Source: Corynebacterium amycolatum (GTDB taxonomy: Bacteria > Actinomycetota > Actinomycetes > Mycobacteriales > Mycobacteriaceae). From it: DNA of 32,000 nt. The notes under the pieces were generated by a model. The model searched no databases, had not been told where the DNA came from, and saw nothing but the letters and a program-made list of their open reading frames with translations. The DNA lies in assembly GCF_049243625.1 (NCBI RefSeq), contig NZ_CP046975.1; one strand, 5' to 3'. Below are positions 12,216 through 30,566 of the stretch, piece by piece (within the stretch, counting starts at the first letter, position 1; every line of letters begins with the position of its first letter). A program made the translations under genes and the position numbers.

Positions 12216-13073
12216 CTAATTCAGGGTTAGAGCGGCAAGCGCGGGCTCATCCTCTGGTGTGCAGGTGGAGAGCCAACGGTCGATGGCATCGGACTCCGCC
12301 TGCGTGACCCACAGGTTGTATTTCTGTTTTACCGCCACCTGGCGAGCGACATACTGGCAGCGAAATGGTTTGTTGGCGGGTACCCAGGATGCGGCATCGC
12401 TATCTCGCTTTTGCTGATTAGCGGGACCATCGACGGCCAAGAGGTTGAGGGGGTCATTGGCAAAGTCCTGCCGAACCTCAGGTGAGAGCTGCTGTGCTCC
12501 CTTTTGCCAGGCGTCGCTCAAGGCCACAACATGGTCGATTTGCACGGCGGAAGAGGTGTCGCGGCCGCGCTGAAACTCAATCATCGTGCCAGTGTAGGGA
12601 TCCAGTAGTTGCCCCGAAAGTACGACGCAATCGCGGGTATTTGGTTTGTACTCCTTATTAATAAGGTCACGATTCAAAATGTCGTTCCGCGTGTCACATC
12701 CGTTGTGGCCAAACTCGGCAGAGATGTCATCGCTCCAACGTTGCCCGAATTCGTCGCGCGCATAGCCGGTTTTCGGTGCGCGCCCTTTTATCTCCAGCTG
12801 GTTGAGGGCGCTACGGATGCCGTCGATAGGCGATGTGCCGGGCGCTGGGGTGCCGGGGGAGTCTGGGGTGTGGGGCGCTTCAGGAATCTCGGGCGCGGGT
12901 TCCGCTGGCTCGGGCGTAAAAGCGGGTGCCGGGGCCGGGCTATGCGACTGGCTCTCTGGAGTGGGGTCTATGGGATCCGTGCAGCCGCTGAGGATTGTCG
13001 CTGCGCCGATAAGGAGGGCGAGGCCCTGTAATGGCGAGCGGAAACGACGGTTGGCGAGCATGGAGCTAACCAT
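12216..13073 (-). CDS. Secreted lipoprotein with a DUF1524 / His-Me-finger (GmrSD C-terminal-like) nuclease domain
   Basis: ORF 12216..13124, but that start is a TTG. ATG 13073 or ATG 13061 gives a signal peptide (MLANRRFRSPLQGLALLIGAATILSGC) with the lipobox LSGC. A Pro/Ala/Glu-rich linker follows. The DUF1524 hallmarks are GHNGCDTRNDIL, IDHVVALSDAW and NLLAVDGPANQQKRD. The exact start is uncertain. Confidence 0.8.
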   Translation of the reverse strand: MVSSMLANRRFRSPLQGLALLIGAATILSGCTDPIDPTPESQSHSPAPAPAFTPEPAEPAPEIPEAPHTPDSPGTPAPGTSPIDGIRSALNQLEIKGRAPKTGYARDEFGQRWSDDISAEFGHNGCDTRNDILNRDLINKEYKPNTRDCVVLSGQLLDPYTGTMIEFQRGRDTSSAVQIDHVVALSDAWQKGAQQLSPEVRQDFANDPLNLLAVDGPANQQKRDSDAASWVPANKPFRCQYVARQVAVKQKYNLWVTQAESDAIDRWLSTCTPEDEPALAALTLN

Positions 13074-13263
13074 AGCGGTAGGAGGGGATTGGGTATGGAG
13101 GGGATTTGCTAAAGAATCGAACAACTGTGCGTGGATAGTGGGGGTGGTAGCTCGATTAGGGGGTTATGAGATTAAAACGGGTAGTAAAAGCCCGGTTTTA
13201 TTCGGGCTGGCAGGCTGGTCTAGCTCCTTCGGGGGTGGGCAAATACAGTTAATTCCCTAAATA

Positions 13264-13277: not shown

Positions 13278-13368
13278 CCTAGATGAAAGTGCATTGTTAA
13301 AACAGTTGGAAATATAGATAACCCGTGTCCCCCAATTGGCACATTGCACCTACAAGGGGAAAACAGCC

Positions 13369-16300
13369 ATGACAGCTAAGACAGCCATGACTCTGATCGA
13401 AACAGCGGCCACATTGCCTCGTGGTCCTCAGAGGGAAGGTCTCTACCACCCGTCGAACGAACACGATGCGTGTGGCGTGGCCTTTGTTGCCGACATTTAC
13501 GGTCGCCAGACCCATGACATTGTGGAAAAGGGCATTCAGGCACTGGTCAATCTCGACCACCGCGGTGCCGCCGGTGCAGAGAAGACCACCGGCGACGGTG
13601 CCGGCATTCTCATTCAGGTTCCGGATGCCTACTACCGTGCTGAGCTGAGCAAGGAAGGCGTTATTTTGCCGCCGGCGGGAACCTACGCCACTGGTATCGC
13701 CTTCCTGCCGCAGGCGCGGATGGCCACTCTCGATGCCATTCGGGCTATTGAAGACACCTGCGCTGAAGAGGGCATCGAGATCCTGGCATGGCGCGATGTA
13801 CCGATCGACGCTGAAGGGCTCGGCCAGATGGCCCGTCAGGCTATGCCAGTGCTCCGTCAGCTCTTCGTTACCGCGAAGAACTACGAGGGGCGCCAGCTCA
13901 GCGATATTGATCTCGACCGCAAGATGTTCTTCCTGCGTAAGCGCTGCGAGCGTGAGCTGGGCGAACGGGGCGCCGGCGAGGGCTCTGGCGGCGACACCGT
14001 GTACTTCCCGTCGCTGTCCAGCCGCACAATTGTCTACAAGGGTATGCTCACTACCCCGCAGCTGAAGGATTTCTATCTTGACCTGCAGCAGAAGGAAGTT
14101 ACTTCCGCGCTGGCCATCGTGCACTCGCGCTTTTCCACGAACACTTTCCCGTCCTGGCCGCTGGCACACCCGTACCGCTACGTCGCTCACAATGGTGAGA
14201 TCAACACCGTGCGCGGCAACGAAAACTGGATGCGCGCCCGCGAGTCGCTGATTCGCTCTGGCAAGCTGGGCAATATCGACCGCGCGCTGCCGGTGTGCGA
14301 CCCCAACGGTTCTGACACTGCGCGTTTCGACGAGGCCCTGGAGCTCCTGCATCTCGGTGGTCGCAGTCTCCCGCATGCGGTCATGATGATGGTTCCGCAG
14401 GCCTGGGAGCACGATGACAACCTCAGCCCGCAGGTTCGCGCGTTCTACGAGTACCACGCCTGCCTGATGGAGCCGTGGGACGGCCCCGCCGCTATCTGCT
14501 TTACCGACGGCCAGGTCATCGGTGCCACCTTGGATCGCAATGGCCTGCGGCCGGGACGCATTTGGGTGACTGACGAGGGCCTGGTGGTGATGGCCTCCGA
14601 AGCTGGTGTCTTGGATATCCCGCCGGAGCAGATTGTGCAGCGCACGCGCGTACAGCCGGGGCGTATGTTCCTGGTGGACATGAAGGCCGGTCGCATTATT
14701 GAGGACAAGGAGATTAAGTCCACGCTGGCCGCCACTGGGCCCTACGAGGAATGGATCAAAGAAGGCCTGGTCGACATCGCCGATTTGCCACGAGAGCGCT
14801 ACCAGTACATGCCGCATGCCCGCGCGGTGTTACGACAGCGCGTCTTCGGCATCACCGAAGAAGACGTTGACCTAATCATCCGCCCGATGGCACTCACCGG
14901 CGCGGAGGGCCTGGGTTCGATGGGCTCGGACACGCCGATTGCGGCGCTGTCCAACCGACCTCGCATGCTGTTCGACTTCTTCTCGCAGCGGTTTGCACAG
15001 GTGACCAACCCGCCGCTGGACTCGCTGCGCGAAAAGTCCATCACCAGCATGAATACGTTGCTGGGGGCAGAGACCAACATCTTGGAGCCCACTGCCGATG
15101 CCGCCCGTCGTATCCGGCTAGAGCATCCAATCCTGGACAACCACGACTTTGTCACCCTGTGTCAGGCGGGCAAGAACGAGGAGTACTCCGAGTTCCGCGC
15201 CGAGGTCATCTCCGGCCTGTACCCGGTCGCCCGCGGTGGCCGTGGCCTGCGCAACGCTATTCGTCGTGTCCGCCGTGAGGTCTCTGAAGCCATTGACCGT
15301 GGTGCCCGACTGATTGTGCTGTCTGACCGTGAGTCCAACGAGCGCTTTGCGCCGATCCCCTCGCTGCTGCTGACCTCTGCGGTCCACCACCACCTGGTGG
15401 AGGAACGCACTCGGACGCGTGCCAGCCTCATCATTGAGGCTGGCGACGCCCGCGAGGTGCACCACATGGCCATGCTGCTGGGCTTTGGTGCCGATGCCAT
15501 TAACCCATACATGGCTTTCGAAACCATCGATGAGCTGCGCATGAAGGACCAGCTCGGTGATCTGACGCTGGATCAGGCCTGCTCGAACTACTGTAAGGCC
15601 GCCTCCAAGGGCGTGCTGAAGGTCATGTCCAAGATGGGTATCGCCTCACTGCAGTCCTACCGTGGCGCACAGCTGGCCGACACCGTCGGTCTGTCGCAGG
15701 AGTTCCTGGACGAGTACTTCACCGGCGCTGTTTCTCCGCTGGAGGGCATTGGCCTCGACGAGGTCGCAGAAGATGTTGCCGCTCGCCACCGCAGCGCATT
15801 TCTGCCGCGTCCGGAAGAGCAAGCACACCGCGAGCTGGATCTCGGCGGCGAGTACAAGTGGCGCCGCGAAGGCGAGTACCACCTATTCAACCCGGAGACC
15901 ATCTACACGCTGCAGCATGCGACCCGCACTGGTCAGTACGCGGTCTTCCGAGATTACACCAACAAGGTCGATGAGCAGACCAAGCAGCTGGCAACTCTGC
16001 GCGGCATGCTCGAGTTCGTCTCGGATCGCGAGCCGATCGACATTGGAGAGGTTGAACCGGTCTCCAGCATCGTCAAGCGTTTCTCCACCGGCGCGATGAG
16101 CTACGGTTCCATCTCCGCGGAGGCGCACGAGACGCTGGCTATTGCCATGAATCGCCTGGGTGGCATGTCCAACTCCGGCGAGGGCGGCGAGGACCCGGAC
16201 CGCTTCGAGATGGAGGCCAACGGCGACTGGAAGCGCTCTGCCATCAAGCAGGTCGCATCGGGTCGCTTCGGCGTGACCAGCCACTACCTGTCCAACTGCA

Positions 16301-18009
16301 CCGACATCCAGATTAAGATGGCCCAAGGCGCAAAGCCCGGCGAAGGTGGCCAGCTGCCACCGAACAAGGTCTACCCGTGGATTGCGGAAGTCCGCATCAC
16401 CACCCCGGGCGTGGGCCTGATTTCGCCGCCGCCGCACCACGACATCTACTCGATCGAGGATTTGGCGCAGCTCATTTACGACCTCAAGAACGCCAATCCG
16501 CGCGCCCGCATTCACGTGAAGCTCGTCTCCGAGCAGGGTGTGGGTACTGTCGCCGCTGGTGTGTCGAAGGCGCATGCCGACGTCGTGTTGATCTCCGGCC
16601 ACGATGGCGGCACTGGTGCCTCGCCGCTGACCAGCCTCAAGCACGCCGGTGGTCCGTGGGAGCTGGGGCTCGCTGAAACCCAGCAGACCCTGATGCTCAA
16701 CGGGCTGCGCGACCGCATCCGCGTGCAGTGCGACGGTCAACTCAAGACCGGTCGCGATGTCGTGGTCGCGATGCTGTTGGGCGCTGAGGAGTTCGGTTTC
16801 GCCACCGCTCCGCTGGTGGTGGAGGGCTGCGTCATGATGCGCGTCTGCCACCTGGACACCTGCCCAGTCGGTATTGCCACCCAGAATCCGAAGTTGCGGA
16901 GCAAGTTCACCGGCCGTGCCGAGCACGTGGTCAACTTCTTCACCTTTATCGCCCAGCAGGTCCGTGAATACCTCGCTGAACTGGGTTTCCGCACCATCGA
17001 TGAAGCGGTCGGGCATGCCGAGTGCCTGCGTCCGCGCAAGGATCTCGACAACCTTCCGCGCGTCGCAAAGCTTGACCTGGAGCGAATCCTGCACGTTGCC
17101 GAAAGCCCCTTCTTTGCGGACCAGGATTCCTACTGCACGACGGCGCAGGACCACGGGCTCGAGGGTGCGTTGGACGAGCGCCTCATCGACGAAGCGCAGC
17201 CCGCACTGCGCACGGCGCGCGCGAATGGGTTGGCGCCGACGCCAGTGGCGCTGCACCACGCCATCAGCAATGTGAACCGTTCCGTGGGCACGCGGCTCGG
17301 GTACGAAGTCACCAAAGTCGCAGGTAAGCATGGGCTTGCCGACGACTCCATCGTCGTCAACCTGCTCGGTTCCGCCGGTAACTCGCTGGGCGCGTTCCTG
17401 CCGGCCGGTGTGACTATCAAGCTGGAGGGCGATGCTAACGACTTCGTCGGCAAGGGACTGTGCGGCGGCAAGATTGTGGTCCGACCTTCACGTTCGGCTC
17501 CGCCGACCGCGGATGTGGCTACCGACACCATTGCCGGCAACGTCATTGGTTTCGGTGCCACCAGTGGTGAGATCTTCGTCCGCGGCACTGTCGGTGAGCG
17601 CTTCTGCGTGCGTAACTCCGGTGCTACGGCCGTGGTCGAGGGCATCGGTAACCACGGTTGTGAGTACATGACCGGTGGCCGCGTCGTAGTGGCGGGTCCG
17701 GTCGGTCACAACTTCGGCGCCGGTATGAGTGGCGGTATCGCCTATCTGCTGGATAACGAGGCGACGCGGGCGAACATCAACACCGAGCTGATCGACATCG
17801 TGCCGCTGGGTGATGAGGACATCAGCTGGCTGGAGGCCACGCTGTCGAAGCACCGCAAGCTCACGGGTTCCAAGACTCGGTTCCCGGCTGCACAGTTCAT
17901 CAAGATCATGCCGCGTGATTACGCCCGAATTCTCGACGTAGTCGCGAAGGCAAAGGACAACGACGCTGACATCAACGAGGCAATCATGGAGGCAGTAAGC
18001 AATGGCTGA
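13369..18009 (+). CDS. gltB: Glutamate synthase large subunit
   Basis: ORF 13336..18009. It has the Ntn-amidotransferase catalytic Cys (CGVAFVADI), FMN/Fe-S central domains and a C-terminal GXGXG beta-helix domain. I prefer ATG 13369, which has AAGGGGA 8 nt upstream, over TTG 13336. An 11-bp direct repeat ACAGCCATGAC (13363-13373 and 13381-13391) supplies a second in-frame ATG at 13387. Confidence 0.95.
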
Positions 18010-19543
18010 TCCGAAGGGTTTCATGAAATTCCAGCGCGAAGAGCCTGCTCATCGTCCGGTTCCGCTGCGTCTGATGGACTGGAAAGAGGTCTATGAGGAG
18101 CAGGACAAGGGGCAGCTGCAGCAGCAGGCTTCTCGCTGCATGGACTGCGGCGTGCCGTTTTGTCACTCGGCCTGCCCGCTGGGCAACATCATTCCGGAGT
18201 GGAATGACCTGGTTCGTCAGAACCGCTGGCACGAGGCTTTCGAGCGCTTGCACGCCACCAATAACTTTCCCGAGTGGACCGGTCGCCTGTGTCCGGCTCC
18301 GTGCGAGGGCGGTTGTGTGCTCGGCATCAACGACGATGCGGTGACCATTAAGAGTATTGAGCTGGCCATCGTTGAACGCGGCTTCGATGAGGGCTGGGTG
18401 CAGCCGATTGTGCCGACTTTCGACACCGGTCAGCACATCGCTGTTATCGGCTCCGGTCCGGCGGGCCTTGCTGCAGCACAGCAGCTGACTCGCGCCGGGC
18501 ATGATGTCACGGTCTTCGAGCGTGACGACAAGATTGGTGGTCTGATGCGCTACGGTGTACCGGACTACAAGATGGAGCAGCGCTTCCTCGACCGTCGCCT
18601 TGAGCAGATGGAGATTGAGGGCACCGAGTTCCGCACCAACGTCTCACCGACCGCCGCTGACCTGGCCGAATTCGACGCGGTTGTTCTAGCTACCGGTGCG
18701 TCACTTGCCCGTGACCTACCTGTCGATGGTCGTGACCTCGAGGGCATTCACCAGGCTATGGAGTACTTGCCGGGCGCCAACCGCGTTGCCGTAGGCGAGC
18801 TCGACACCCCGCCAATTGATGCCAAGGGCAAGAAGGTTGTCGTCATCGGTGGTGGCGACACCGGCATTGACTGCTTCGGTACCGCGCTGCGCCAGGGAGC
18901 GGTGTCCGTCACGCAGTTCGATATCCGTCCGCGGGCTCCGAAGTCCCGTGCGGCGTCGACTCCGTGGCCGATGTATCCGCTGGTCTGGCGCGTAGCTACT
19001 GCCCACGAAGAAGGTGAGTACACCATCACCGGTTCCGAGCCGCCAGAGGTTACCGAGGCGCTCGGCCTTAACGCTCGCGTCACCGGTGAGACGCTGGGCA
19101 AGCGCGTCTTCAACGTCAACACCGTCTCCTTCCACGGCGAGGACGGTCACGTGACCGGTCTGTCCGCCAACGAGGTCGAGGTCATCGATGGGAAGCGCGT
19201 GCCCATGGAGGACACGGATTTCGAGCTCGATGCCGACCTAGTTCTCATTGCTCTGGGCTTCTCCGGCCCGGAGCGCGGGGGCCTGCCGCATGAGCTGGGG
19301 ATTCAGTTCAACGATCGCGGTGTGATGATGCGTGACGACGACTACCTCGCCGTGCGCAGCGACATCGAGCAGAACTTCGACGGTCCGGTGTTCGTGGCCG
19401 GTGACAATGGCCGTGGTGCCAGCCTAATCGTGTGGGCTATCGCCGAAGGCCGCGCCTGCGCCGAGGCCGTGGACCAGTACCTGATGGGCGAGTCCAACTT
19501 GCCTCGCGCGGTGGAGCCAGAAGACGCTCCAATTAAGTTGTAA
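18002..19543 (+). CDS. gltD: Glutamate synthase small subunit
   Basis: Fe-S Cys clusters ([18 protein letters not shown]) and the dinucleotide fold [14 protein letters not shown]. The start overlaps the gltB stop by 8 nt (ATGGCTGA), implying translational coupling. Confidence 0.95.
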
Positions 19544-19551
19544 ACCCTGGT

Positions 19552-22191
19552 TTAGTTCACCACTATGTCGCCGCGTGCTCCCATTTCGGCATGCACCATC
19601 TGGTGGTCAACAAAGCGGTACGTGCCCGGCTCCGGGAATTCGGCCTCAACATAACCACCCTGCGCGGCACCGAGGTCAAGGGCTTGGGCGCCGCCCACGC
19701 CGTCGTCAAGCAAAAGCGTTCCCTCTTTGTACACGCGATGGAACTGCGTACCGACGATGTGGAAGCTCGTGCCCTTGTTGGGGCCTGCGGCCAGTAACCA
19801 GAAACGTACCGTCTCACCTGCGCGAATGCGGATGGGGTGGGTGAGATACTGGTCGGGGTAACCGTTGAACTTGTAGATATCCGGATCCTCGGCCATGACC
19901 TTGTCGGCATCGGGGCCGGCTTCGCCCCAGTAGCTTTCGGACTGCACCAGAAGAACTTCGTGGTCGACTTCTGCGAGGCTCGGCGGGTCAATGATGACCG
20001 CACCGTGCATGCCGGCAGCGATGTGCATGGACATGGGCATGGTTGCGCAGTGGTACATCCAGATGCCCGCCCGGTCGGCGCGGAAGCGGTACTCAAGCTT
20101 CTCGCCAGGGGCAATGTCTCGCATCGGCTCATCCGGCGAGACAATGCCCGCGTGGAAGTCGATGGAGTGACTCATCGTGCCATCGTTAATGAGCGTGACG
20201 ACGAACTCGTCGCCCACCTTGCCGCGCAGGGTTGGCCCCAGCGGTTTGCCGTTGAATACCCAATGCTGCTGCTCGACGCCAGGGGCAGCGTAGCCGGTGA
20301 ACTCGCTGGCTCTCAGGGTGACGTGGTGGACTGTAGTGTCCTCGGCGGGCGCCAATATTGGATTAATGGTAGGGGAGTCTGGGCCGGGTTGCTCGCCGAC
20401 ATTCCCGAGCGCACCGGGAGTGGCATGGTCAGCGTGGTTGCCACGTCCGGTGTGGTGTGAATGATCAGTGCTACCTGTATTGACCGTGAGCGTCATGCCC
20501 ATCTGGCGGTGACCAGCAATGGTGCACCAGCCGTCAATGTCACCGGGAACAACCGGCACTTCAATGGTGGCGGAGTTGCCAGGGGCGACACGTCCGGTGT
20601 CCTCGCCGGTGGCCAAGCGCAGATCGTGGACCTGGGAATCAGCGTTGACCATGGTGATGACCAGGCGGTCACCGGGGTTGACCTCGATGATGTTTGGGGT
20701 GTACGTCATATCGTTGGCGGTAACCGTGACCTCGACGGTCTCGCCGGTGGGTGCGATATCGCCGGTGGTTTCAATGCTGCCCGTTCCGCCGCCACCGCTC
20801 AGCGCAACACCAATAGTCACTACCAGACCCAATACAGCCAGAGCGGCGGTAGTTTGAGCACCGAGTCGACGTGCAGTTGCGTGCAGTTCGACCGGCTTCG
20901 GCGTTGCTTCTTTGTTGGCCCGTGCCTTCTGACTTTCTTTCAGCGCACCAATCTGAGCCTTCGCGGCACGACCGACAAGTGGCAGATAAGACACCAAGGC
21001 AAGGGAGACCATTGCGGAGACCGCCACTTTGGCCCAGGAAGGCAGCGGCATTAGCCACAGTGCCAGACCAATATTGATGATCGACCAGCGGAATGCGCCC
21101 GCGCGGTCAAGTTCCTTCATACCGGCAGAGACTGGGCCAGCACCTCCGCCGATGGTGGCGGGCAAGAGTTGGCTCATCATGCCGATAAGCAATTGTGCGC
21201 CGAAACCGATTACCAGCGGCAGCGTAAGGGATGAGATTACGAAGCTGCCGTCAAGCGCCTTGACTGTGGCAACTGTGAGTGTGCCGATCAGCCAGACGGC
21301 CGCAGCCGCAACAGACAGCGCCGGGTAGCTGAGGCGGTCGCGGGGGTCTTTAGCGACAGTCATGACGTTGTGCGCCCACGGAATGGCGGCTATAACCCAG
21401 CCGATAGTGATGATGCCAAGGCCGACGGAGGCGAACCAGTTGAAGCTGGTCAGTGCACCGATTGTGGTAGTCGCGATACCTATGAGCTGTACTGCTAGTG
21501 CCAGCTTCGGGCGGGAATGCGGCGACATCTGGGTTCGCCACAGCGCTGGGAACATGGTGATGAGCGTGCCGCAGGCCGCGAGCCCGAGGAAGCCAATAAG
21601 GTTGATGGCTTCATGTGCCAGTAGGAGGTCGTCGTGAAGCGCTTCGCCCTTCGGAGATGCGAGGATGGCGCCGAGCGTGGCGCCGATCGGCAGTAGGCAT
21701 GCCGACGCGACGTAGTACGCAACGGAGATGGCGAATGGTCGATCGCGTTTCGCTACCAGGTCGCGTCCGAGGGAAATCGCATGCCATGCGACGGCGACGC
21801 CGACGACCGCCGCGCCGGCCGTGGTCACTGGCCACCAATCGCCCAGCTTGCCGACGACCGTTGCGACAATGCCCGCGTTGAGCAGGTAAATGTTTGCTAA
21901 CTGAATGTGCCGATTGCCATCGGGCACATCGATTTTCAGTAGTTTCTCGGTGAAGTGGCGGCCCCAGATAAGGATGGAGTTAGTGACGGCGCCGAGGGTA
22001 AAGAGGTGCACCAACAGCCAGCGCCCATCGGTGACAAATGGGTGGACTAATGCGGCCACAATGATGGCAGCGAACCACCAGCGCACCGGCATACCGGCCT
22101 TGCGATGCCAGGACATGCGGTGACTCTTGCCAGGTTTAGAAGGGGGTTTGGTTGTGGGGGCTTGGGGCTCTGGTGTGGCGGGCGACGACAT
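19552..22191 (-). CDS. Membrane-anchored multidomain copper nitrite reductase (NirK-type core) with an N-terminal polytopic membrane domain and an extra cupredoxin domain
   Basis: 879 aa. Residues ~30-470 form about 10-13 hydrophobic helices. Residues ~480-570 form a cupredoxin with type-1 Cu ligand spacing (QVHDL ... WCTIAGHRQMGM). A His-rich linker follows (TDHSHHTGRGNHADHATPG). The NirK core carries SHSIDFHAG (T1 and T2 His), YHCATMPMSMHIAAGMHG (T2 His, T1 Cys/His/Met), FHIVGTQFH and a C-terminal VDHQMVHAEMGARGDIVV. Confidence 0.8.
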   Translation of the reverse strand: MSSPATPEPQAPTTKPPSKPGKSHRMSWHRKAGMPVRWWFAAIIVAALVHPFVTDGRWLLVHLFTLGAVTNSILIWGRHFTEKLLKIDVPDGNRHIQLANIYLLNAGIVATVVGKLGDWWPVTTAGAAVVGVAVAWHAISLGRDLVAKRDRPFAISVAYYVASACLLPIGATLGAILASPKGEALHDDLLLAHEAINLIGFLGLAACGTLITMFPALWRTQMSPHSRPKLALAVQLIGIATTTIGALTSFNWFASVGLGIITIGWVIAAIPWAHNVMTVAKDPRDRLSYPALSVAAAAVWLIGTLTVATVKALDGSFVISSLTLPLVIGFGAQLLIGMMSQLLPATIGGGAGPVSAGMKELDRAGAFRWSIINIGLALWLMPLPSWAKVAVSAMVSLALVSYLPLVGRAAKAQIGALKESQKARANKEATPKPVELHATARRLGAQTTAALAVLGLVVTIGVALSGGGGTGSIETTGDIAPTGETVEVTVTANDMTYTPNIIEVNPGDRLVITMVNADSQVHDLRLATGEDTGRVAPGNSATIEVPVVPGDIDGWCTIAGHRQMGMTLTVNTGSTDHSHHTGRGNHADHATPGALGNVGEQPGPDSPTINPILAPAEDTTVHHVTLRASEFTGYAAPGVEQQHWVFNGKPLGPTLRGKVGDEFVVTLINDGTMSHSIDFHAGIVSPDEPMRDIAPGEKLEYRFRADRAGIWMYHCATMPMSMHIAAGMHGAVIIDPPSLAEVDHEVLLVQSESYWGEAGPDADKVMAEDPDIYKFNGYPDQYLTHPIRIRAGETVRFWLLAAGPNKGTSFHIVGTQFHRVYKEGTLLLDDGVGGAQALDLGAAQGGYVEAEFPEPGTYRFVDHQMVHAEMGARGDIVVN

Positions 22192-22248
22192 ATATCAATA
22201 ATACGCATACTGGTTGCGCATTTAATAGGGGTGCATGTAAGAGTGCTT

Positions 22249-22452
22249 TTATTTGGGCAGGTCTTCGCCGTTTTTGTAGGCCTGCCAGAACTGTGTGGTC
22301 TGCTGTGTCTGACTCATCCGGTTTTGAATCAGCATCAGGGTAGCAAGCAATAGCGTCATCACCGTTAGAACTGAAACGGCAGTAATCAATGCAGCAAGGA
22401 AGGGCTTCCGGATGATGAAAGCGCGTGCCCGACGCGTTGATGATGTGCTCAC
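22249..22452 (-). CDS. Hypothetical small single-pass membrane protein (67 aa)
   Basis: GTG start at 22452. The translation has a basic N-terminus (RRARAFIIRK) followed by one hydrophobic helix (PFLAALITAVSVLTVMTLLLATLMLI). It is on the same strand as the NirK-type gene and 57 nt upstream of it. There is no recognisable family, so coding status is unproven. Confidence 0.4.
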   Translation of the reverse strand: MSTSSTRRARAFIIRKPFLAALITAVSVLTVMTLLLATLMLIQNRMSQTQQTTQFWQAYKNGEDLPK

Positions 22453-22691
22453 GGAGAAAGTGTAACCCTTTTGTCAAAAACGATTGTTTGAGTATTCACG
22501 CAAATACTTCCGTGAATAAGCATCTCAATAAAGAGGCGATTTTGCATTAATTGGAATCGTCGGGAAGTGGTTACGTTAGAAGTTAGTTTGTACAGCTAGT
22601 TATATGAATGTAAACAGATTGAAGCTTCGGTAAATAGTTGGCGAAACATTGTTTTACCAGGGAGGATGACGGGTGGAAAGGGTGGCTTTTT

Positions 22692-22715
22692 GGCTACCCG
22701 AACGATGGGGTAGCC
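22692..22715 (+). other. GC-rich hairpin (8-bp stem GGCTACCC/GGGTAGCC, 8-nt loop) in the leader of the glycan operon
   Basis: Read directly. It is about 105 nt upstream of ATG 22820. No U-run follows on either strand, so it is not a canonical terminator. Confidence 0.3.
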
Positions 22716-22819
22716 CATTGGAGTAGAGGGCTGTAAATGTAGTTCATATCGCATAGTATGCCAAGCCTGTGGAACGCATTGTGCGTAGGAAAATTTAACC
22801 AGCAATAAAAGGCATAAGA

Positions 22820-24696
22820 ATGTTTATCCGAGACTGGAAGCAGCTCGCCTGGTGTGTATTTGATGTACTCGCCTGGCTGGTTGCGCTGTCCGCCGCTAAT
22901 GGAATCGTCCGCGGTGAATTGGTATCTTTCTCTGAAATATCAGGCACTAATTTTTTGGTTGTCGCTGTCGCCGTGGTAGTCATCGTCCTGCTTGGCCTGC
23001 TGCTCGGGGAGTACACCAACCCGCAACGCGTATGGCCCGGCAGTCGAACTGAAGATATTGTTCTGCTGAGCATCAGCATGGGGGGCGCTACCGCAGCCAC
23101 TGGTTTGGCTCAAATTCTGAAGACCTTCCCGGAAATTGCGTGGTACGTTCCGTTCGCCGGTGGCTGTGTCGCAACTTTGGCAAGTATCTATACCCGAACT
23201 CTCGCTCGCTGGATTACCGATAACTTTGGCACCCGCCAGACGGATGATCGCTTGATTGTTCTCGGTGCAGGCCGTCGAGCCAAGTTTTTTATTAACAGCC
23301 TTACGGATTCCGGTATTTCCCGTGAGAACCGCTTCCACTTGGTTGGAATCGTCGATCCCGAAGAAAGCGGTGAGAACCATATTTCTCGTATCCATGGTCT
23401 CCGCGTGATTCGTGGCATTGATCAGTTGGGCGAAGTCGCATCGCGCACTTCGGCGCAGTCGGTCATCATTGCGACTAATGAGCCACTGTCCACTGAGTGC
23501 ATCAATGTCCTCAACCACATTTGTGAGGAATCGTCCCTGCGCCTGCTTATTCTGCCGCCGGTGGAGGAGTACTCGCGCCACCGTGGCGCTGTCGCTACCT
23601 CGCAGGTGCGCGAAATTAACATCGCCGACCTCATCGGCCGCCAGCCGCTGCACCTGGATGAATCCAAGGTCGCTTCGATAATCCGCGGTAAGAAGGTGCT
23701 GGTCACAGGCGCTGGCGGTTCTATCGGTTCCGAGATCTGCCGACAGGTTCACCGCTTTGAGCCGGCAGAAATTATCATGCTGGATCGCGATGAGGGCGGC
23801 TTGCATGCCACTCAGCTGTCGCTGACGGGTTCGGCGCTTCTCGACGGCTCCGATACCGTCTTGGCTGATATCCGTGACGCGGAAATGCTGACGCAGATCT
23901 TCACCGAGCGCAAGCCCGATGTTGTCTACCATGCTGCAGCTCTCAAGCACCTGCCGCTGCTGGAGAGCTACCCTGCAGAAGCAGTGCAAACCAATGTCAT
24001 CGGAACCCAGAACGTCCTGGATGCAGCCGCTGCGGCCAATGTTTCAACCGTTATTAATATTTCCACGAAAAGGCTGCGAACCCAGCCTCGATTCTGGGTG
24101 AATCCAAGCGCGCCGCAGAACGTCTGACTGCGCACATGGGGCAAACTCACGAAGGTGTCTGGGCATCTGTCCGCTTCGGTAACGTGTTTGGCTCGCGTGG
24201 CTCGGTCATTACGACTTTCCAGCGTCAGATTGAAGAGGGCGGCCCGGTTACGGTGACGCACCCTGACGTTCAGCGCTACTTCATGACCATTCCGGAGGCA
24301 TCGCAGCTGGTGCTGCAGGCTACCGTTATTGCAGAGTCCGGTGAGACTCTGGTGCTGGAGATGGGTGAGCCGGTCAAGATTGCTGAGCTGGCGGAGAACC
24401 TTATCAGGCTCCATGACGCAGACGTAGAGATTGTCTACACGGGTCTTCGCGAAGGTGAGAAGATCTCCGAGGACTTGGTTGATGACCGCGAGGTTCCCAA
24501 GATTGGTGATCGTCATCCGCTGATTACTGAGGTACGTGTTGAGCCGGAACGGCTGAATTCGCGGATTCTCCCGTGCACACATAATCACGATGCTGCACGT
24601 CGTTGGCTTGCAGAGCACGGTGGGGCGCAAAGCAGTATTGCGGCGTATCCCGCTGGTGCACAATCACTTGCAACCGCTAGCTCGAAGGCAAAATAG
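22820..24696 (+). pseudogene. PglF/CapD-like membrane-anchored UDP-GlcNAc 4,6-dehydratase (Polysacc_synt_2 family), interrupted by a 1-nt frameshift near 24067-24071
   Basis: ORF 22820..24127 is in frame 2. It has N-terminal TM helices, the Rossmann motif VLVTGAGGSIGSE and HAAALKHLP, and reads ...VINIST and then nonsense. The family sequence continues in frame 1, which is open from 24058: EKAANPASILGESKRAAERL...RFGNVFGSRGSV...RYFMTIPEA, ending at 24696. The junction coincides with the conserved STDKA-type motif and the run AAAA at 24068-24071. Confidence 0.75.
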
Positions 24697-27153: not shown

Positions 27154-28331
27154 TGACTAACGCCGACGCTAACAAGCCCAATGAGCGGATCTTTCTTTCG
27201 CTCGCGACAGTCACCGAAGCAGAAGAACAGGCCGTCGTTCGTGCACTCCACTCTGGTTGGGTGGCTCCGTTGGGCCCCGAGGTAGACGCGTTTGAAGCGG
27301 AGATTGCCAAGCGCTGCGGTGTTGAGCACGCGCTCGCACTGTCGTCTGGTACTGCTGGCCTGCACTTGGCGCTGCTCGCGCTGGGGATTGGTGAAGGTGA
27401 CTACATCCCGGTTTCCACCATGACCTTCGCGGCCACGACCAACGCCATCGCTTACGTCGGCGCTACGCCAGTGTTTATCGATGCCGCAGAGGACGGCAAC
27501 ATCGACCCTGAGCTGCTGCTCTGCACCGTCGATGAACTGCTTGCCGAGGGCAAGAGCGTTCCTGCCGTGATGATTGTGGACCTCTTCGGCCGCTGCGCCG
27601 ACTACCCGGCCTTCGCGCCACGCCTGGAAGAACTCGGCATCGCGCTCATCGAGGACGCCGCCGAGGCGCTCGGTGCTAGCGTCGATGGTCAGCCGGCCGG
27701 CAGCTTTGGTCGTGCCGCCGCGCTGTCTTTCAACGGCAACAAAATCATGACCACCTCCGGCGGTGGCATGCTGCTGTCCAACGATGCTGATCTCATCGCC
27801 CGCGCGCGCTACCTGTCCACGCAGGCGCGTCAGCCCGTCGCTTGGTACGAACACACCGAAATCGGCTACAACTACCGTCTTTCCAATCTGCTTGCCGCGC
27901 TGGGGCGGGCGCAGCACTCGCGTCTGGACGACATGATTGCTCGCCGCCGCCAGATTCGCGACGCGTACCTAGATTTGCTCGCCTCGCTTGACGACGATGC
28001 CCCTGGTAAAGGTACCCGCTTGCTCTCTGACTCCGACGAGCGGTTCACCGAGAACTGCTGGCTGACCTCGATTGTGCTGCCACAGGATGCCGTCGATAAG
28101 GGCGTGCTGAGCCCGGACAGCGTGATTGCGGCGCTGGGTGAGTCCAACATCGAGGCTCGTCACCTGTGGAAGCCGATGCACCTGCAGCCGGTGTATGAGG
28201 GCGCGCGAGCGACCATCAACGGTACCGCTGAGAATCTTTTCTCCCGCGGCATTACTCTTCCTAGTGGTCCGGCGCTGGACGATGACGACGTCGCGCGGGT
28301 GATAGGTGTTTTGAAGGAAGTGCTGGGATGA
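27153..28331 (+). CDS. DegT/DnrJ/EryC1-family PLP aminotransferase (PglE-like sugar 4-aminotransferase)
   Basis: 392 aa. It has EDAAEALGA and the PLP-lysine region SFNGNKIMTTSGGGML. The start overlaps the GT4 stop (TAATG). Confidence 0.9.
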   Translation: MTNADANKPNERIFLSLATVTEAEEQAVVRALHSGWVAPLGPEVDAFEAEIAKRCGVEHALALSSGTAGLHLALLALGIGEGDYIPVSTMTFAATTNAIAYVGATPVFIDAAEDGNIDPELLLCTVDELLAEGKSVPAVMIVDLFGRCADYPAFAPRLEELGIALIEDAAEALGASVDGQPAGSFGRAAALSFNGNKIMTTSGGGMLLSNDADLIARARYLSTQARQPVAWYEHTEIGYNYRLSNLLAALGRAQHSRLDDMIARRRQIRDAYLDLLASLDDDAPGKGTRLLSDSDERFTENCWLTSIVLPQDAVDKGVLSPDSVIAALGESNIEARHLWKPMHLQPVYEGARATINGTAENLFSRGITLPSGPALDDDDVARVIGVLKEVLG

Positions 28332-29890
28332 CTTCTACTGAGGTAGCTGGAGAAGCTGTAAAACAGCGAAAACCAATACTGCAGTCGCTATTTATTGTGG
28401 TGGCCGCAGGAATGTTTGCTGGTGTTCTCTACGTTGGCGACATGACGATGAAGGATGTCTCCGCAGCGCTTCCTGATTTATCTTTGGCATTGTCGATTTT
28501 GGTGATCGTTGCAATCCTTACCGCCGTTGGCACGCCTCAATCTCAGCGCCAGAGTTGGTTGAACGCGATGAAAGGCGCTGGCAATGTAAAACAGTGGCCG
28601 ATTGCAGCGTGGGCATTAGTGGCGTTCTATGTCTGGCTGTTATGGATGATGCTGTCCGGACTATGGGCTCCTGAAGCTGCCGAAGTCGCTCCCGTCGTTA
28701 CTGCGTTGATAACGCTCGGACTCATCGCCACGATGGCAGCGATACTGTTCTATTTGCATCCTCAGGCACTGGTGTGGCTGTGGTTAGCAATAGCCATTTG
28801 CTCGCTTATTTTTCTCTACGGCGGCATTACTGGTCCGAAATATGTCGGACGTATGACTGCGTTCGGCGGTGGCCCGAATGTCTTTGCCCGTTTCATGCTG
28901 TACGGCATCGCGGCAGCTGTGTTTTTTATGCTGTGGCGTAAGTTCATGTGGGCAGCTCTCTTGTTCGCTGCACCATTTGCTTACGGTCTCGTTGCGTCGG
29001 GAAGCCGCGGTGTACTGGTTGCTACCACCGTGGTAGTCCTCTTTACCGCAATAGCTGTGTTTTTTCACTGGGGTTGGAAGTGGGCGACTGTTTTTTACGT
29101 CGCTGTCGCCGCAGCGGTCGCGTATGGATACTCGCGATTCATCGCAGGTACCGAGATTGAAGAGTACTTTAAGACGCGCTTTATCCAGTTGACCTTCGAA
29201 AAAGAACATGATTCTGGGCGTAGTTATCTTCACGATGAAGCTTTCCGAATCATGGGTGAACACCGCATCTTTGGTGGTGGTCTGCACAGCTTCGTTGTGC
29301 TGTCGACACCGAGGTCTTCACGTCCACTGGAGCATCCGCACAATATCTTCTACACAGTCGGATCTGAAGCGGGTGTCATAGGAATCGGTCTGTTTGTGAT
29401 TGTGCTGGTTGTGTTGGCAATCGCTTGTCGCCACCTATTCAAGTTTCTTCAAGCTGGTCTGACCGTAGCTGTGGCGTTAGCGGTTCTTGTGGCACAGGTT
29501 TTTTCCGGCTACTACTACGATTCCCGTTCGCTATGGCTATTTGGCTTTGCAGCAGCATTTGCAATGCTGAGCCTACGGTGCCGCGCGCAGGACACAGCAT
29601 CGGTAGAACCAGAGCTGGAGCCGCAACCAGAACCCGCAGCCGAGCCCGAACCAGTCATGGTCACCGATACCGCGGAGCCGGTTGTGCCGGAGCTGGAGCC
29701 AGCGGTGGCCGTCGTCAAGCAAAGTGCGCCTGACAACAAGAATGACAACAAGAAACTGCGCGTTGCGGCAGCGTCGTTTGCTGCGGCTGGTGCAGCGGGT
29801 GCGATCGGTTGGTTGGTCAGAAACCGTTCAAATGCGGAAGTCGATGCGCGTGCCGAAAAGCTTCTGCGCGAAATGTTCAACGAAAAGTAG
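28328..29890 (+). CDS. Wzy_C / O-antigen-ligase-family polytopic membrane protein with a C-terminal Pro/Glu-rich linker and an extra TM helix
   Basis: 520 aa with more than 10 hydrophobic helices. A large loop (EIEEYFKTRFIQLTFEKEHDSGRSYLHDEAFRIMGEHRIFGGGLHSF....EHPHNIFY) resembles the Wzy_C periplasmic loop. The start overlaps the aminotransferase stop (ATGA). It is the most AT-rich gene in the locus. Confidence 0.72.
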   Translation: MTSTEVAGEAVKQRKPILQSLFIVVAAGMFAGVLYVGDMTMKDVSAALPDLSLALSILVIVAILTAVGTPQSQRQSWLNAMKGAGNVKQWPIAAWALVAFYVWLLWMMLSGLWAPEAAEVAPVVTALITLGLIATMAAILFYLHPQALVWLWLAIAICSLIFLYGGITGPKYVGRMTAFGGGPNVFARFMLYGIAAAVFFMLWRKFMWAALLFAAPFAYGLVASGSRGVLVATTVVVLFTAIAVFFHWGWKWATVFYVAVAAAVAYGYSRFIAGTEIEEYFKTRFIQLTFEKEHDSGRSYLHDEAFRIMGEHRIFGGGLHSFVVLSTPRSSRPLEHPHNIFYTVGSEAGVIGIGLFVIVLVVLAIACRHLFKFLQAGLTVAVALAVLVAQVFSGYYYDSRSLWLFGFAAAFAMLSLRCRAQDTASVEPELEPQPEPAAEPEPVMVTDTAEPVVPELEPAVAVVKQSAPDNKNDNKKLRVAAASFAAAGAAGAIGWLVRNRSNAEVDARAEKLLREMFNEK

Positions 29891-29900
29891 GAGATGACCA

Positions 29901-30566
29901 ATGGATTCACTAAGCATCCGCGCGCAACGGGTAATTAAGCGTGGCATCGACGTCGCGGCGTCTGCAGCAGGCCTGATTGTGCTGTCGCCAGTTATGGGTG
30001 CTACGGCGCTGGCAGTACGGCTTTCCATGGGGAAGCCAGTCCTATTCCGCCAGGAACGCCCGGGCCAGGATGGTGAGCCGTTTAATATCCTCAAGTTCCG
30101 GACGATGCACCACGTCAATCCGGCAAAGGGGTTTGTCGACGATGCGTCCCGCCTCACGCAGGTAGGAAAATTCCTTCGGTCCACAAGCTTGGATGAGCTC
30201 CCGGAGCTCTTTAACGTTCTGCGTGGCGATATGAGCCTCGTTGGTCCGCGTCCGCTGCGCATGAAGTATCTAGAACGTTATTCGCCGCGCCAAGCACGCC
30301 GCCATGAGGTGCCACCGGGAATTACGGGGCTTGCCCAGGTCTCGGGCCGCAATGGCATCACCTGGGAAGAGCGTTTCGAGTACGACGTGCAGTACGTGGA
30401 TAATTGGTCGCTACTGCTCGATGCAAAGATCCTGCTCGACACGATCTTGGTGGTGCTGAGGCGCGAAGGCATCTCAGAAGAGGGTCAAGCGACCATGACT
30501 GAGTTCACCGGTTCGTCGAACAATGGGTCGTCGGATAAGGACGTCTCCGCTAACGAAGATTCTTAA
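29901..30566 (+). CDS. Small monotopic phosphoglycosyl transferase (Bac_transf family, PglC-like initiating sugar-phosphate transferase)
   Basis: 221 aa with a single N-terminal re-entrant helix (AASAAGLIVLSPVMGATALAV). Motifs: PVLFRQERPG, FNILKFRTM, DELPELFNVLRGDMSLVGPRP, PGITGLAQV. AGGAG lies 8 nt upstream. Confidence 0.9.
   Translation: MDSLSIRAQRVIKRGIDVAASAAGLIVLSPVMGATALAVRLSMGKPVLFRQERPGQDGEPFNILKFRTMHHVNPAKGFVDDASRLTQVGKFLRSTSLDELPELFNVLRGDMSLVGPRPLRMKYLERYSPRQARRHEVPPGITGLAQVSGRNGITWEERFEYDVQYVDNWSLLLDAKILLDTILVVLRREGISEEGQATMTEFTGSSNNGSSDKDVSANEDS

Follow-up and report, generated by a model that had tools for sequence, protein, structure and literature searches.

The locus described here raises the question of how a copper nitrite reductase (NirK) obtains its electrons in an actinobacterium. 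To our knowledge, actinobacteria have no soluble periplasmic cytochromes c or pseudoazurins, the proteins that serve NirK in proteobacteria, and the electron supply of actinobacterial NirK has so far been unexplained. The window analyzed is a stretch of 32,000 nucleotides from Corynebacterium amycolatum (contig NZ_CP046975.1 of assembly GCF_049243625.1). A sequence-only reading of this window had proposed that one protein, encoded at 19552-22191, combines a polytopic membrane domain, a cupredoxin, a His-rich linker and a NirK core. The ORF list and translation bear out this four-module architecture and supply the strand, which the reading had not given: 19552-22191 of the minus strand is one uninterrupted open reading frame (ORF) of 879 amino acids plus a stop, with its ATG at 22191; the plus-strand frame of the same interval contains many stops. 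As judged from its sequence, it is close to certain that the gene product is a membrane-integrated copper nitrite reductase. The parts of the gene are as follows (TM, transmembrane helix; T1 and T2, type-1 and type-2 copper; pLDDT, predicted local distance difference test score).

19552..22191, minus strand: whole ORF, 879 amino acids, or 854 from M26; both lengths are database entries
22087..22191, minus strand: predicted N-terminal cytoplasmic tail, residues 1-35, rich in Lys and Arg (six K+R against one D+E)
20965..22086, minus strand: membrane domain of 12 TM, residues 36-409, from the hydropathy scan, AlphaFold2 model, Foldseek and conservation
20860..20964, minus strand: predicted cytoplasmic loop between TM12 and TM13, residues 410-444, positively charged (seven K+R), with the lowest pLDDT of the two-domain model
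20788..20859, minus strand: TM13, residues 445-468, from the hydropathy scan; helix 416-440 of the modelled construct
20488..20742, minus strand: type-1 cupredoxin, predicted extracytoplasmic, residues 484-568, with ligands H522, C556, H561 and M566
20332..20487, minus strand: low-complexity linker, residues 569-620, with a His cluster at residues 577-589 (nucleotides 20425-20463)
19555..20331, minus strand: two-domain NirK core, residues 621-879, with T1 ligands H675, C715, H723 and M728, T2 ligands H680, H714 and H863, and catalytic D678 and H811

The 854-amino-acid form begins at an alternative in-frame ATG at 22116 (M26, 'MSWHRK...'), which is the start of most database relatives. The ATG at 22191 lacks a clear Shine-Dalgarno sequence, and just upstream of the ATG at 22116 there is a weak AAGAG. 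An AT-rich stretch, TATTATTGATAT, lies immediately before the ATG at 22191, and in the 630-bp gap beyond it (22192-22819) a small minus-strand frame (window 22136-22477) ends in 'AAATAA' about 60 bp before this ATG. The N-terminal tail carries a conserved SWHR[KR]A motif, which also served as a search pattern. Twelve TM followed by TM13, together with positive-inside charges and the hydropathy scan, place the N terminus inside and the copper domains outside. TM13 brings the chain to the outer membrane face, and it is still present in homologues that consist of the membrane domain only (e.g., P0017).

Every motif quoted in the sequence-only reading is found in the minus-strand translation: LVHPFV at residues 48-53, LVHLFTLGAV at 60-69, LLLAHEAINLIGFLG at 189-203, IPWAHNV at 270-276, WCTIAGHRQMGM at 555-566, SHSIDFHAG at 674-682, YHCATMPMSMHIAAGMHG at 713-730, FHIVGTQFH at 810-818 and VDHQMVHAEMGA at 861-872. 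That reading had allowed that copper ligands might be missing, or that the fusion might be an artefact; alignment and a phyletic survey show neither. For the survey, one genome per GTDB species was scanned with a profile of the membrane domain, which yielded 171 relatives, and 80 loci were fetched. When the three parts of the query were searched separately against these loci with tblastn, 34 were found to hold the membrane domain, cupredoxin and NirK core in one ORF. The full fusion occurs in Corynebacterium, Gordonia, Arthrobacter, Rothia, Cutibacterium (C. modestum) and Micrococcaceae, and its order is kept across at least six actinobacterial genera. The fusion is real, because single-ORF orthologues occur in at least six genera, complete genomes included; one ORF carries all the parts, the large polytopic domain among them, in about 35 genomes. 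An assembly or frameshift artefact is rejected, since the ORF is intact in independent assemblies. Three shorter database versions, P0004 (644 amino acids), P0007 (745 amino acids) and L071, carry frameshifts, and their tails do not follow the query.

Two shorter architectures occur among the same 80 loci. Approximately 10 loci encode the membrane domain, TM13 and cupredoxin (about 555 amino acids), and approximately 30 encode the membrane domain and TM13 alone (about 430 amino acids), mostly in the C. tuberculostearicum, C. aurimucosum and C. striatum groups. Membrane-only members account for 70 of 147 representatives, and some of them carry the source label 'copper oxidase'.

The cupredoxin and the NirK core

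The C-terminal half is related to NirKs of solved structure over its whole length. Pfam places Cupredoxin_1 at residues 484-560 (E 6e-12) and Cu-oxidase_3/_2 at 637-737. The PDB sequence matches are headed by 2dv6 (E 2e-41), 6the (5e-41) and AniA (1kbv, 3e-39), followed by 6tfd and the NirK of Geobacillus (GkNiR, 3wia), and the solved NirKs overall fall between E 2e-41 and 1e-30. Residues 497-875 align to residues 53-428 of 2dv6, a collinear match that spans the extra cupredoxin and the core and agrees with the proposal of a separate upstream cupredoxin as in N-terminally extended three-domain NirKs. HdNIR, the three-domain NirK of Hyphomicrobium denitrificans (2dv6, 6tfd/6tfo), has the same order of type-1 cupredoxin, linker and two-domain core, and its cupredoxin motif, CSIAGHRQAGM, corresponds to CTIAGHRQMGM here. 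HdNIR is a soluble periplasmic protein whose signal peptide is cleaved, whereas here 13 TM (about 470 amino acids) precede the cupredoxin, and the linker is longer than in HdNIR and contains His. Foldseek matches the cupredoxin to 4hcf, AcoP, 2dv6 and auracyanin.

Conservation of the ligands was scored in an alignment of 35 full-length proteins recovered from the 80 loci. The ligand motifs pair residue by residue with those of solved NirKs: HSIDFH with HSVDFH, YHCATMPMSMHIAAGMHG with YHCATPSVPTHITNGMYG, SFHIVG with SFHVIG, and VDHQM with VDHAL. The T1 ligands H675, C715, H723 and M728, which are matched in 2dv6 and 6the, are present in all 35 orthologues, as are the T2 ligands H680, H714 and H863, the catalytic D678 (in SHSIDFH) and H811 (in SFHIVG), counterparts of D98 and H255 in AcNiR, and the cupredoxin ligands H522, C556, H561 and M566. 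The spacing of the cupredoxin motif had been given as C-x4-H-x3-M; it is C556-x4-H561-x4-M566, with M566 invariant and M564 present in 24 of 35 orthologues. With every T1 and T2 ligand and the catalytic Asp and His in place, the proposal of a bona fide NirK core holds, and the identity of the core as NirK is, on this alignment, close to certain. In NirKs the T2 sites sit between subunits, with one of the three His supplied by the C-terminal domain of the adjoining subunit, so the protein would have to act as a trimer.

The core also resembles the class II two-domain NirKs AniA of Neisseria (1kbv) and GkNiR (3wia/3wkq) (E 1e-39 to 1e-37), with which it shares the C-x8-H spacing of the T1 loop and a Val at the Ile257 position. 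These enzymes too are tethered to the membrane, but solely through a lipid anchor; neither a polytopic domain nor a cupredoxin is fused to them, and their electrons come from separate cytochromes c or cupredoxins. The sequence-only reading had argued that a soluble periplasmic NirK cannot exist in a Gram-positive or mycolate envelope. This argument needs nuance, as NirKs of Firmicutes are lipoproteins, tethered without a polytopic domain, and C. amycolatum is a species without mycolic acids. The linker was said to hold six His and holds five (577, 579, 580, 586 and 589). Across the 35 orthologues, linkers are 47-77 amino acids long and contain zero to five His, mostly as short HxH or HxxH, and the His cluster is a weakly conserved feature.

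The membrane domain

The first 470 residues belong to a large family that has escaped classification. No Pfam or NCBIfam membrane family matched residues 1-470, and a word-indexed search with these residues returned actinobacterial relatives only. An exhaustive profile search, run over 1.84 billion representatives, gave 1,543 clusters with E<=1e-3; 407 of these had E<=1e-30. The family thus comprises about 1,500 clusters at 50% identity; it is unnamed and has no Pfam or NCBIfam model, without which its members carry no annotation more specific than 'multicopper oxidase domain-containing' or 'cupredoxin domain-containing'.

Modelling indicates that the membrane domain has the fold of subunit I of the heme-copper oxidases (HCO) and nitric oxide (NO) reductases (NOR). 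An AlphaFold2 model built on a 14-sequence alignment reached a pLDDT of 89.5 and a predicted template-modelling score (pTM) of 0.88. In a Foldseek search of the PDB, the 29 best matches were all HCO/NOR subunit I (TM-score TMq 0.65-0.69, probability 1.00, 9-14% identity), from cbb3 (9g6b and 3mk7), ba3 (1ehk), the aa3 oxidases of mycobacteria and corynebacteria, and qNOR; from rank 30 on, unrelated folds (G-protein-coupled receptors, transporters, TehA) were mixed in at TMq of about 0.3 or less. The 12-TM fold is thus that of cbb3 CcoN, ba3, aa3 CtaD, cNOR NorB and qNOR, with the same range of TMq to 9g6b_A, 1ehk_A, 3mk7 and 8hcr_F. The family profile also contains an internal repeat, in which TM1-4 match TM5-8 (E 2.2e-5, with H62 falling on H193) and TM9-12 (E 3.9e-4). 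A pseudo-threefold build of three four-helix units is typical of oxidase subunit I, with which the domain also shares His residues on the outer ends of even-numbered inner helices. COX1 (PF00115) was the sole recurring membrane family in Pfam, in 5 of 80 members and always below threshold; the best member (E 2.2e-6) scored 27.3 bits against a gathering score of 34.8, and the query itself had no match.

The sequence-only reading had offered NnrS-like and CopD-like folds as guesses, and neither was upheld. NnrS is a heme/copper membrane protein that is often encoded beside nirK in proteobacteria, and like the present domain it has about 400 amino acids and 12 TM. No sequence relationship was detected: Pfam NnrS (PF05940) matched none of 14 members at E<=10 and none of 80 members at E<=0.01, and hhalign of the family against Phaeobacter NnrS, encoded about 6 kb from nirK in a nirK-nor plasmid locus, gave E 0.73. 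CopD had no Pfam or NCBIfam match in the same member sets, and no CopD-like protein appeared in the fold search.

Residue conservation was measured over 148 sequences at <=50% identity.

TM1: H50 (LVHPFV), 58%
TM2: H62, 100%; W58, 99%; W76, 96%
TM4: H137, 92%
TM5: Y160, 94%
TM6: H193, 100%; G200, 100%
TM8: H274 (IPWAHNV), 9%
TM9: W300, 99%
TM10: G329, 100%; P344, 100%; Q333, 99%
TM11: R368, 99%; N373, 98%

The His motifs that had been singled out as conserved therefore fare unequally: H62 and H193 occur in every sequence (148/148), H50 is variable and H274 is rarely kept, whereas H137, absent from that list, is kept in most members. H62 and H193 are predicted to occupy symmetry-equivalent positions near the outer face. 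No conserved His was found anywhere in the family in TM7 or TM10, i.e., neither the TM7 His-His pair nor the TM10 HxH. The HCO superfamily is defined by six His: TM2 and TM10 each give one to the low-spin heme, the other His of TM10 binds the high-spin heme, and a His of TM6 and two of TM7 bind CuB/FeB. These six are fully conserved but for one substitution in gNOR (PMC11214002). The domain would therefore share the fold but fall outside the superfamily, without the heme-CuB/FeB binuclear centre, and unlike subunit I it retains as its conserved His only the invariant pair and H137.

The register against authentic oxidases can be read in two ways. Alignment to CyoB with hhalign is best with a shift of four helices, which places LLLAH193xxxN on LFLIAH419FHN, the high-spin heme ligand (E 0.02-0.08). 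This is also the register of the Pfam COX1 match. NorB, in contrast, aligns without a shift, helix for helix (E 0.06; the NorB profile is shallow, with relatives at >=82% identity), and the Foldseek alignments, which run over nearly the full length (470-498 columns), likewise favour the unshifted register. Given the internal symmetry, either register is structurally possible. A profile search of PDB sequences with the family found nothing.

The membrane domain, TM13 and the cupredoxin model as one rigid unit (pLDDT 93.8, pTM 0.89), with no drop relative to the membrane domain alone. TM13 and the cupredoxin have a weak Foldseek likeness to oxidase subunit II (5ndc_B, 2yev_B), and a partner made of a single TM and a cupredoxin recalls that subunit. 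Unlike in the oxidases, the site is a mononuclear T1 site instead of CuA, and the cupredoxin is fused C-terminally.

The protein and its architecture are already known. The exact protein is public in both its 854- and 879-amino-acid forms, within a 90%-identity cluster of 278 members, under the names 'multicopper oxidase domain-containing protein [Corynebacterium]', 'Copper-containing nitrite reductase ... Corynebacterium amycolatum' and 'nitrite reductase [Corynebacterium amycolatum]'. The 13-TM extension was noted in 2017, when an 882-amino-acid 'NirK' of C. pseudotuberculosis, C. durum and C. vitaeruminis was described with an N terminus of about 500 amino acids, 13 predicted TM and a copper nitrite reductase core (Int J Genomics 2017, PMC5338063); that NirK and the window protein are orthologues of the same architecture. 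That description recognized neither the additional cupredoxin nor what kind of domain lies in the membrane, and it assigned no function to either (PMC5338063). In the literature searched, we found no earlier placement of the membrane domain in the oxidase subunit-I fold, no description of the large ligand-poor family, and no reading of the membrane-cupredoxin unit as a counterpart of subunits I and II.

Electron entry and its alternatives

It is possible that the membrane domain is an electron-entry module that holds a single redox cofactor and passes electrons from menaquinol toward nitrite, a reading to which we would give somewhat less than an even chance. The putative cofactor would most simply be one low-spin bis-His heme b between H62 and H193, at a site just beneath the docked cupredoxin, as CuA lies over heme a in oxidases. 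Electrons would then travel from menaquinol to the membrane cofactor, to the T1 copper of the cupredoxin, to the T1 copper of the core and to the T2 copper, where nitrite would be reduced to NO. A cluster on the inner side, formed by H137, Y160, Q333, R368 and N373, is a candidate quinol or proton site. The module would imitate the arrangement of subunits I and II in oxidases, and the outcome would be a self-contained quinol:nitrite oxidoreductase in actinobacteria. Proteins with the membrane domain and cupredoxin but without NirK are common, which fits the pair as a functional redox unit. None of the 80 loci has a conserved partner gene, a NOR gene or an oxidase gene beside the family gene, from which we infer that the protein is self-sufficient.

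Several observations weigh against this interpretation. The cofactor of the membrane domain is putative, and no quinol-binding motif was identified. The sequence alignment to real oxidases is weak and its register ambiguous. Many members consist of the membrane domain only, which indicates a function of the domain that needs neither cupredoxin nor NirK; these stand-alone proteins are the main point that electron entry leaves unexplained. The NCBIfam NirK equivalog TIGR02376 matches residues 620-876 with 134.4 bits, below its cut-off of 296.3. That cut-off is the threshold of one curated model and not a catalytic feature. The only mention of such proteins found in the literature is in silico (PMC5338063).

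An alternative is that the membrane domain acts mainly as a passive anchor or as a scaffold: an oxidase-like relic, it would hold NirK at the membrane of a cell with no outer compartment to retain the enzyme, and the electrons would come from another membrane protein such as the bcc complex, through its di-heme c subunit. Monoderm bacteria must tether their extracytoplasmic enzymes, and the canonical cofactor ligands of the fold have been lost. However, one TM or a lipid anchor would suffice for tethering. Some 20 intramembrane positions with polar or aromatic residues show 90-100% conservation over about 1,500 clusters at <=50% identity, and many species keep a stand-alone domain that is about 40% identical and retains every invariant residue. 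Such conservation and persistence point to selection for an intrinsic activity, and a purely passive role is considered unlikely.

It is also conceivable, though quite unlikely, that the membrane domain handles NO, as a degenerate relative of NOR that binds, reduces or sequesters the NO that the fused NirK sets free. The relatives with the membrane domain only, or with the membrane domain and cupredoxin, would then be stand-alone NO detoxifiers, comparable to NnrS or to a minimal NOR in which the cupredoxin is the subunit of electron entry. The fold superfamily includes cNOR and qNOR, the combination of a subunit-I-like domain with one TM and a cupredoxin mimics subunits I and II of oxidases and NOR, a separate NOR gene is absent near the gene in the 80 loci, and the membrane-only members fit a function independent of nitrite reduction. 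However, the ligands of the binuclear centre are missing (no TM7 His pair and no TM10 HxH), and these His are conserved in the known HCO/NOR families bar the one gNOR substitution (PMC11214002). Furthermore, there is no similarity to NnrS, and a separate qNOR is reported from corynebacteria that have this NirK (PMC5338063).

A role in copper acquisition, in which the membrane domain would move or hold copper at the outer face and load the cupredoxin and NirK with metal and the linker would act as a copper-capture arm, is judged very unlikely. The invariant His pair near the outer membrane face and the HxH or HxxH found in the linkers of 34 of the 35 full-length proteins would suit such a device, as would the 'copper oxidase' label of some membrane-only homologues; each chain needs three copper ions, and no dedicated chaperone gene lies nearby. 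Against it, copper-homeostasis genes are absent from the neighbourhoods, and no Met-rich or Cys Cu(I)-transport motifs and no CopC, CopD or PCuAC matches were found. The linker His, at zero to five per protein and none in C. pelargi (L012), are poorly conserved. We know of no transporter with the oxidase subunit-I fold.

Finally, a generic two-domain multicopper oxidase, or an artefactual four-module ORF, is close to negligible as an explanation: NCBI names most copies 'multicopper oxidase domain-containing protein', the core falls short of the TIGR02376 cut-off and three database versions are frameshifted, but Asp678 and His811, which are specific to NirK, are invariant in 35/35 orthologues, as is the mononuclear T2 site, the HxH pairs of a trinuclear cluster are absent, the best matches are all NirKs, and the ORF is intact in at least six genera.

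Electron entry through the membrane domain is the most attractive of these readings, and oxidase-like wiring offers a concrete, testable answer to the question of electron supply. A broader proposal, possible but doubtful at present, is that the 12-TM domain founds an unrecognized single-cofactor offshoot of the HCO fold, that together with TM13 and the cupredoxin it makes up a menaquinol-oxidizing respiratory mini-module of fused subunits I and II, that the whole protein is the first quinol-dependent copper nitrite reductase, linking the quinone pool to nitrite in a single polypeptide, and that the membrane-only and membrane-cupredoxin relatives of the roughly 1,500-cluster family are new quinol:copper-protein oxidoreductases in Actinobacteria. 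A large family that shows the oxidase subunit-I fold without the 'universal' six-histidine centre bears on the evolution of oxidases and NO reductases. The organisms concerned include skin and oral commensals (Corynebacterium, Rothia and Cutibacterium), which convert nitrate and nitrite from the diet or from sweat to NO.

Genomic setting and neighbouring genes

In Corynebacterium, the membrane-only, membrane-cupredoxin and some of the full-length genes share one syntenic slot, whose neighbours are sodA, msrA, a LysR regulator, a major facilitator superfamily transporter, a RecB-like nuclease, an Lsr2-like gene, a LuxR-type response regulator/histidine kinase and a sortase. The gene context in Rothia is different and equally uninformative. 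The window copy lies outside the slot, between gltBD and a polysaccharide cluster. On gene order, this pattern implies that domains were lost in place and that at least one relocation took place. It also suggests secondary loss of the copper domains rather than their stepwise gain, since the three architectures share the slot and the membrane-only proteins keep the terminal TM13.

Four records bear on individual relatives. P0025 (712 amino acids, metagenome) has the membrane domain fused straight to a NirK-like core without a cupredoxin. Its core lacks the domain-I copper ligands, with GGQCNFGG in place of SHSIDFHAG and YRCAGTDD in place of YHCATMP, and keeps FHVVGGQF and LDHVMV; it is probably a degenerate, non-catalytic variant. 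In P0001 (551 amino acids, metagenome), what follows '...HDLRLAT' is the 5' end of the same gene translated in a shifted frame (PPHQNPKPPQPNHLLNLARV...); mid-gene and gene start are apparently joined on this contig, by an assembly chimera or a tandem duplication. The only non-actinobacterial match, L062 (JXSN01000412.1, 1479 bp), is a membrane-only member attributed to the gammaproteobacterium Achromatium sp. WMS2 and is probably a contaminant contig. The closest genome record, L002 (NZ_JVVM01000033.1; 93-98% amino acid and about 92% nucleotide identity), is titled 'Corynebacterium vitaeruminis strain 1285_CVIT', yet the exact window protein is filed under C. amycolatum, and the title may be a mislabel.

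In the window, the gene is convergent with gltB-gltD (13336-19543, plus strand). Beyond the gap on its other side, a polysaccharide-synthesis cluster begins at 22820, and the rest of the window is ordinary housekeeping. Just upstream of gltB, at 12216-13124 on the minus strand, an ORF encodes a GmrSD_C restriction-endonuclease domain, of the type IV systems that restrict modified DNA. The G+C fraction is 0.53-0.55 at 22001-24000 and 28001-30000, against about 0.60-0.66 elsewhere in the window. These stretches fall in the polysaccharide cluster (glycosyltransferase, DegT aminotransferase, Wzy-like and Bac_transf genes), which may have been acquired horizontally. A CapD/WbpM-like gene (Pfam Polysacc_synt_2; 22820-24696, plus strand) is broken into two ORFs that differ in frame, 22820-24127 and 24136-24696. 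In L002 the orthologue is a single protein of 625 amino acids, and tblastn places the switch of frame near 24067-24073; the split is, by this comparison, a frameshift, marking either a pseudogene or a sequencing error.

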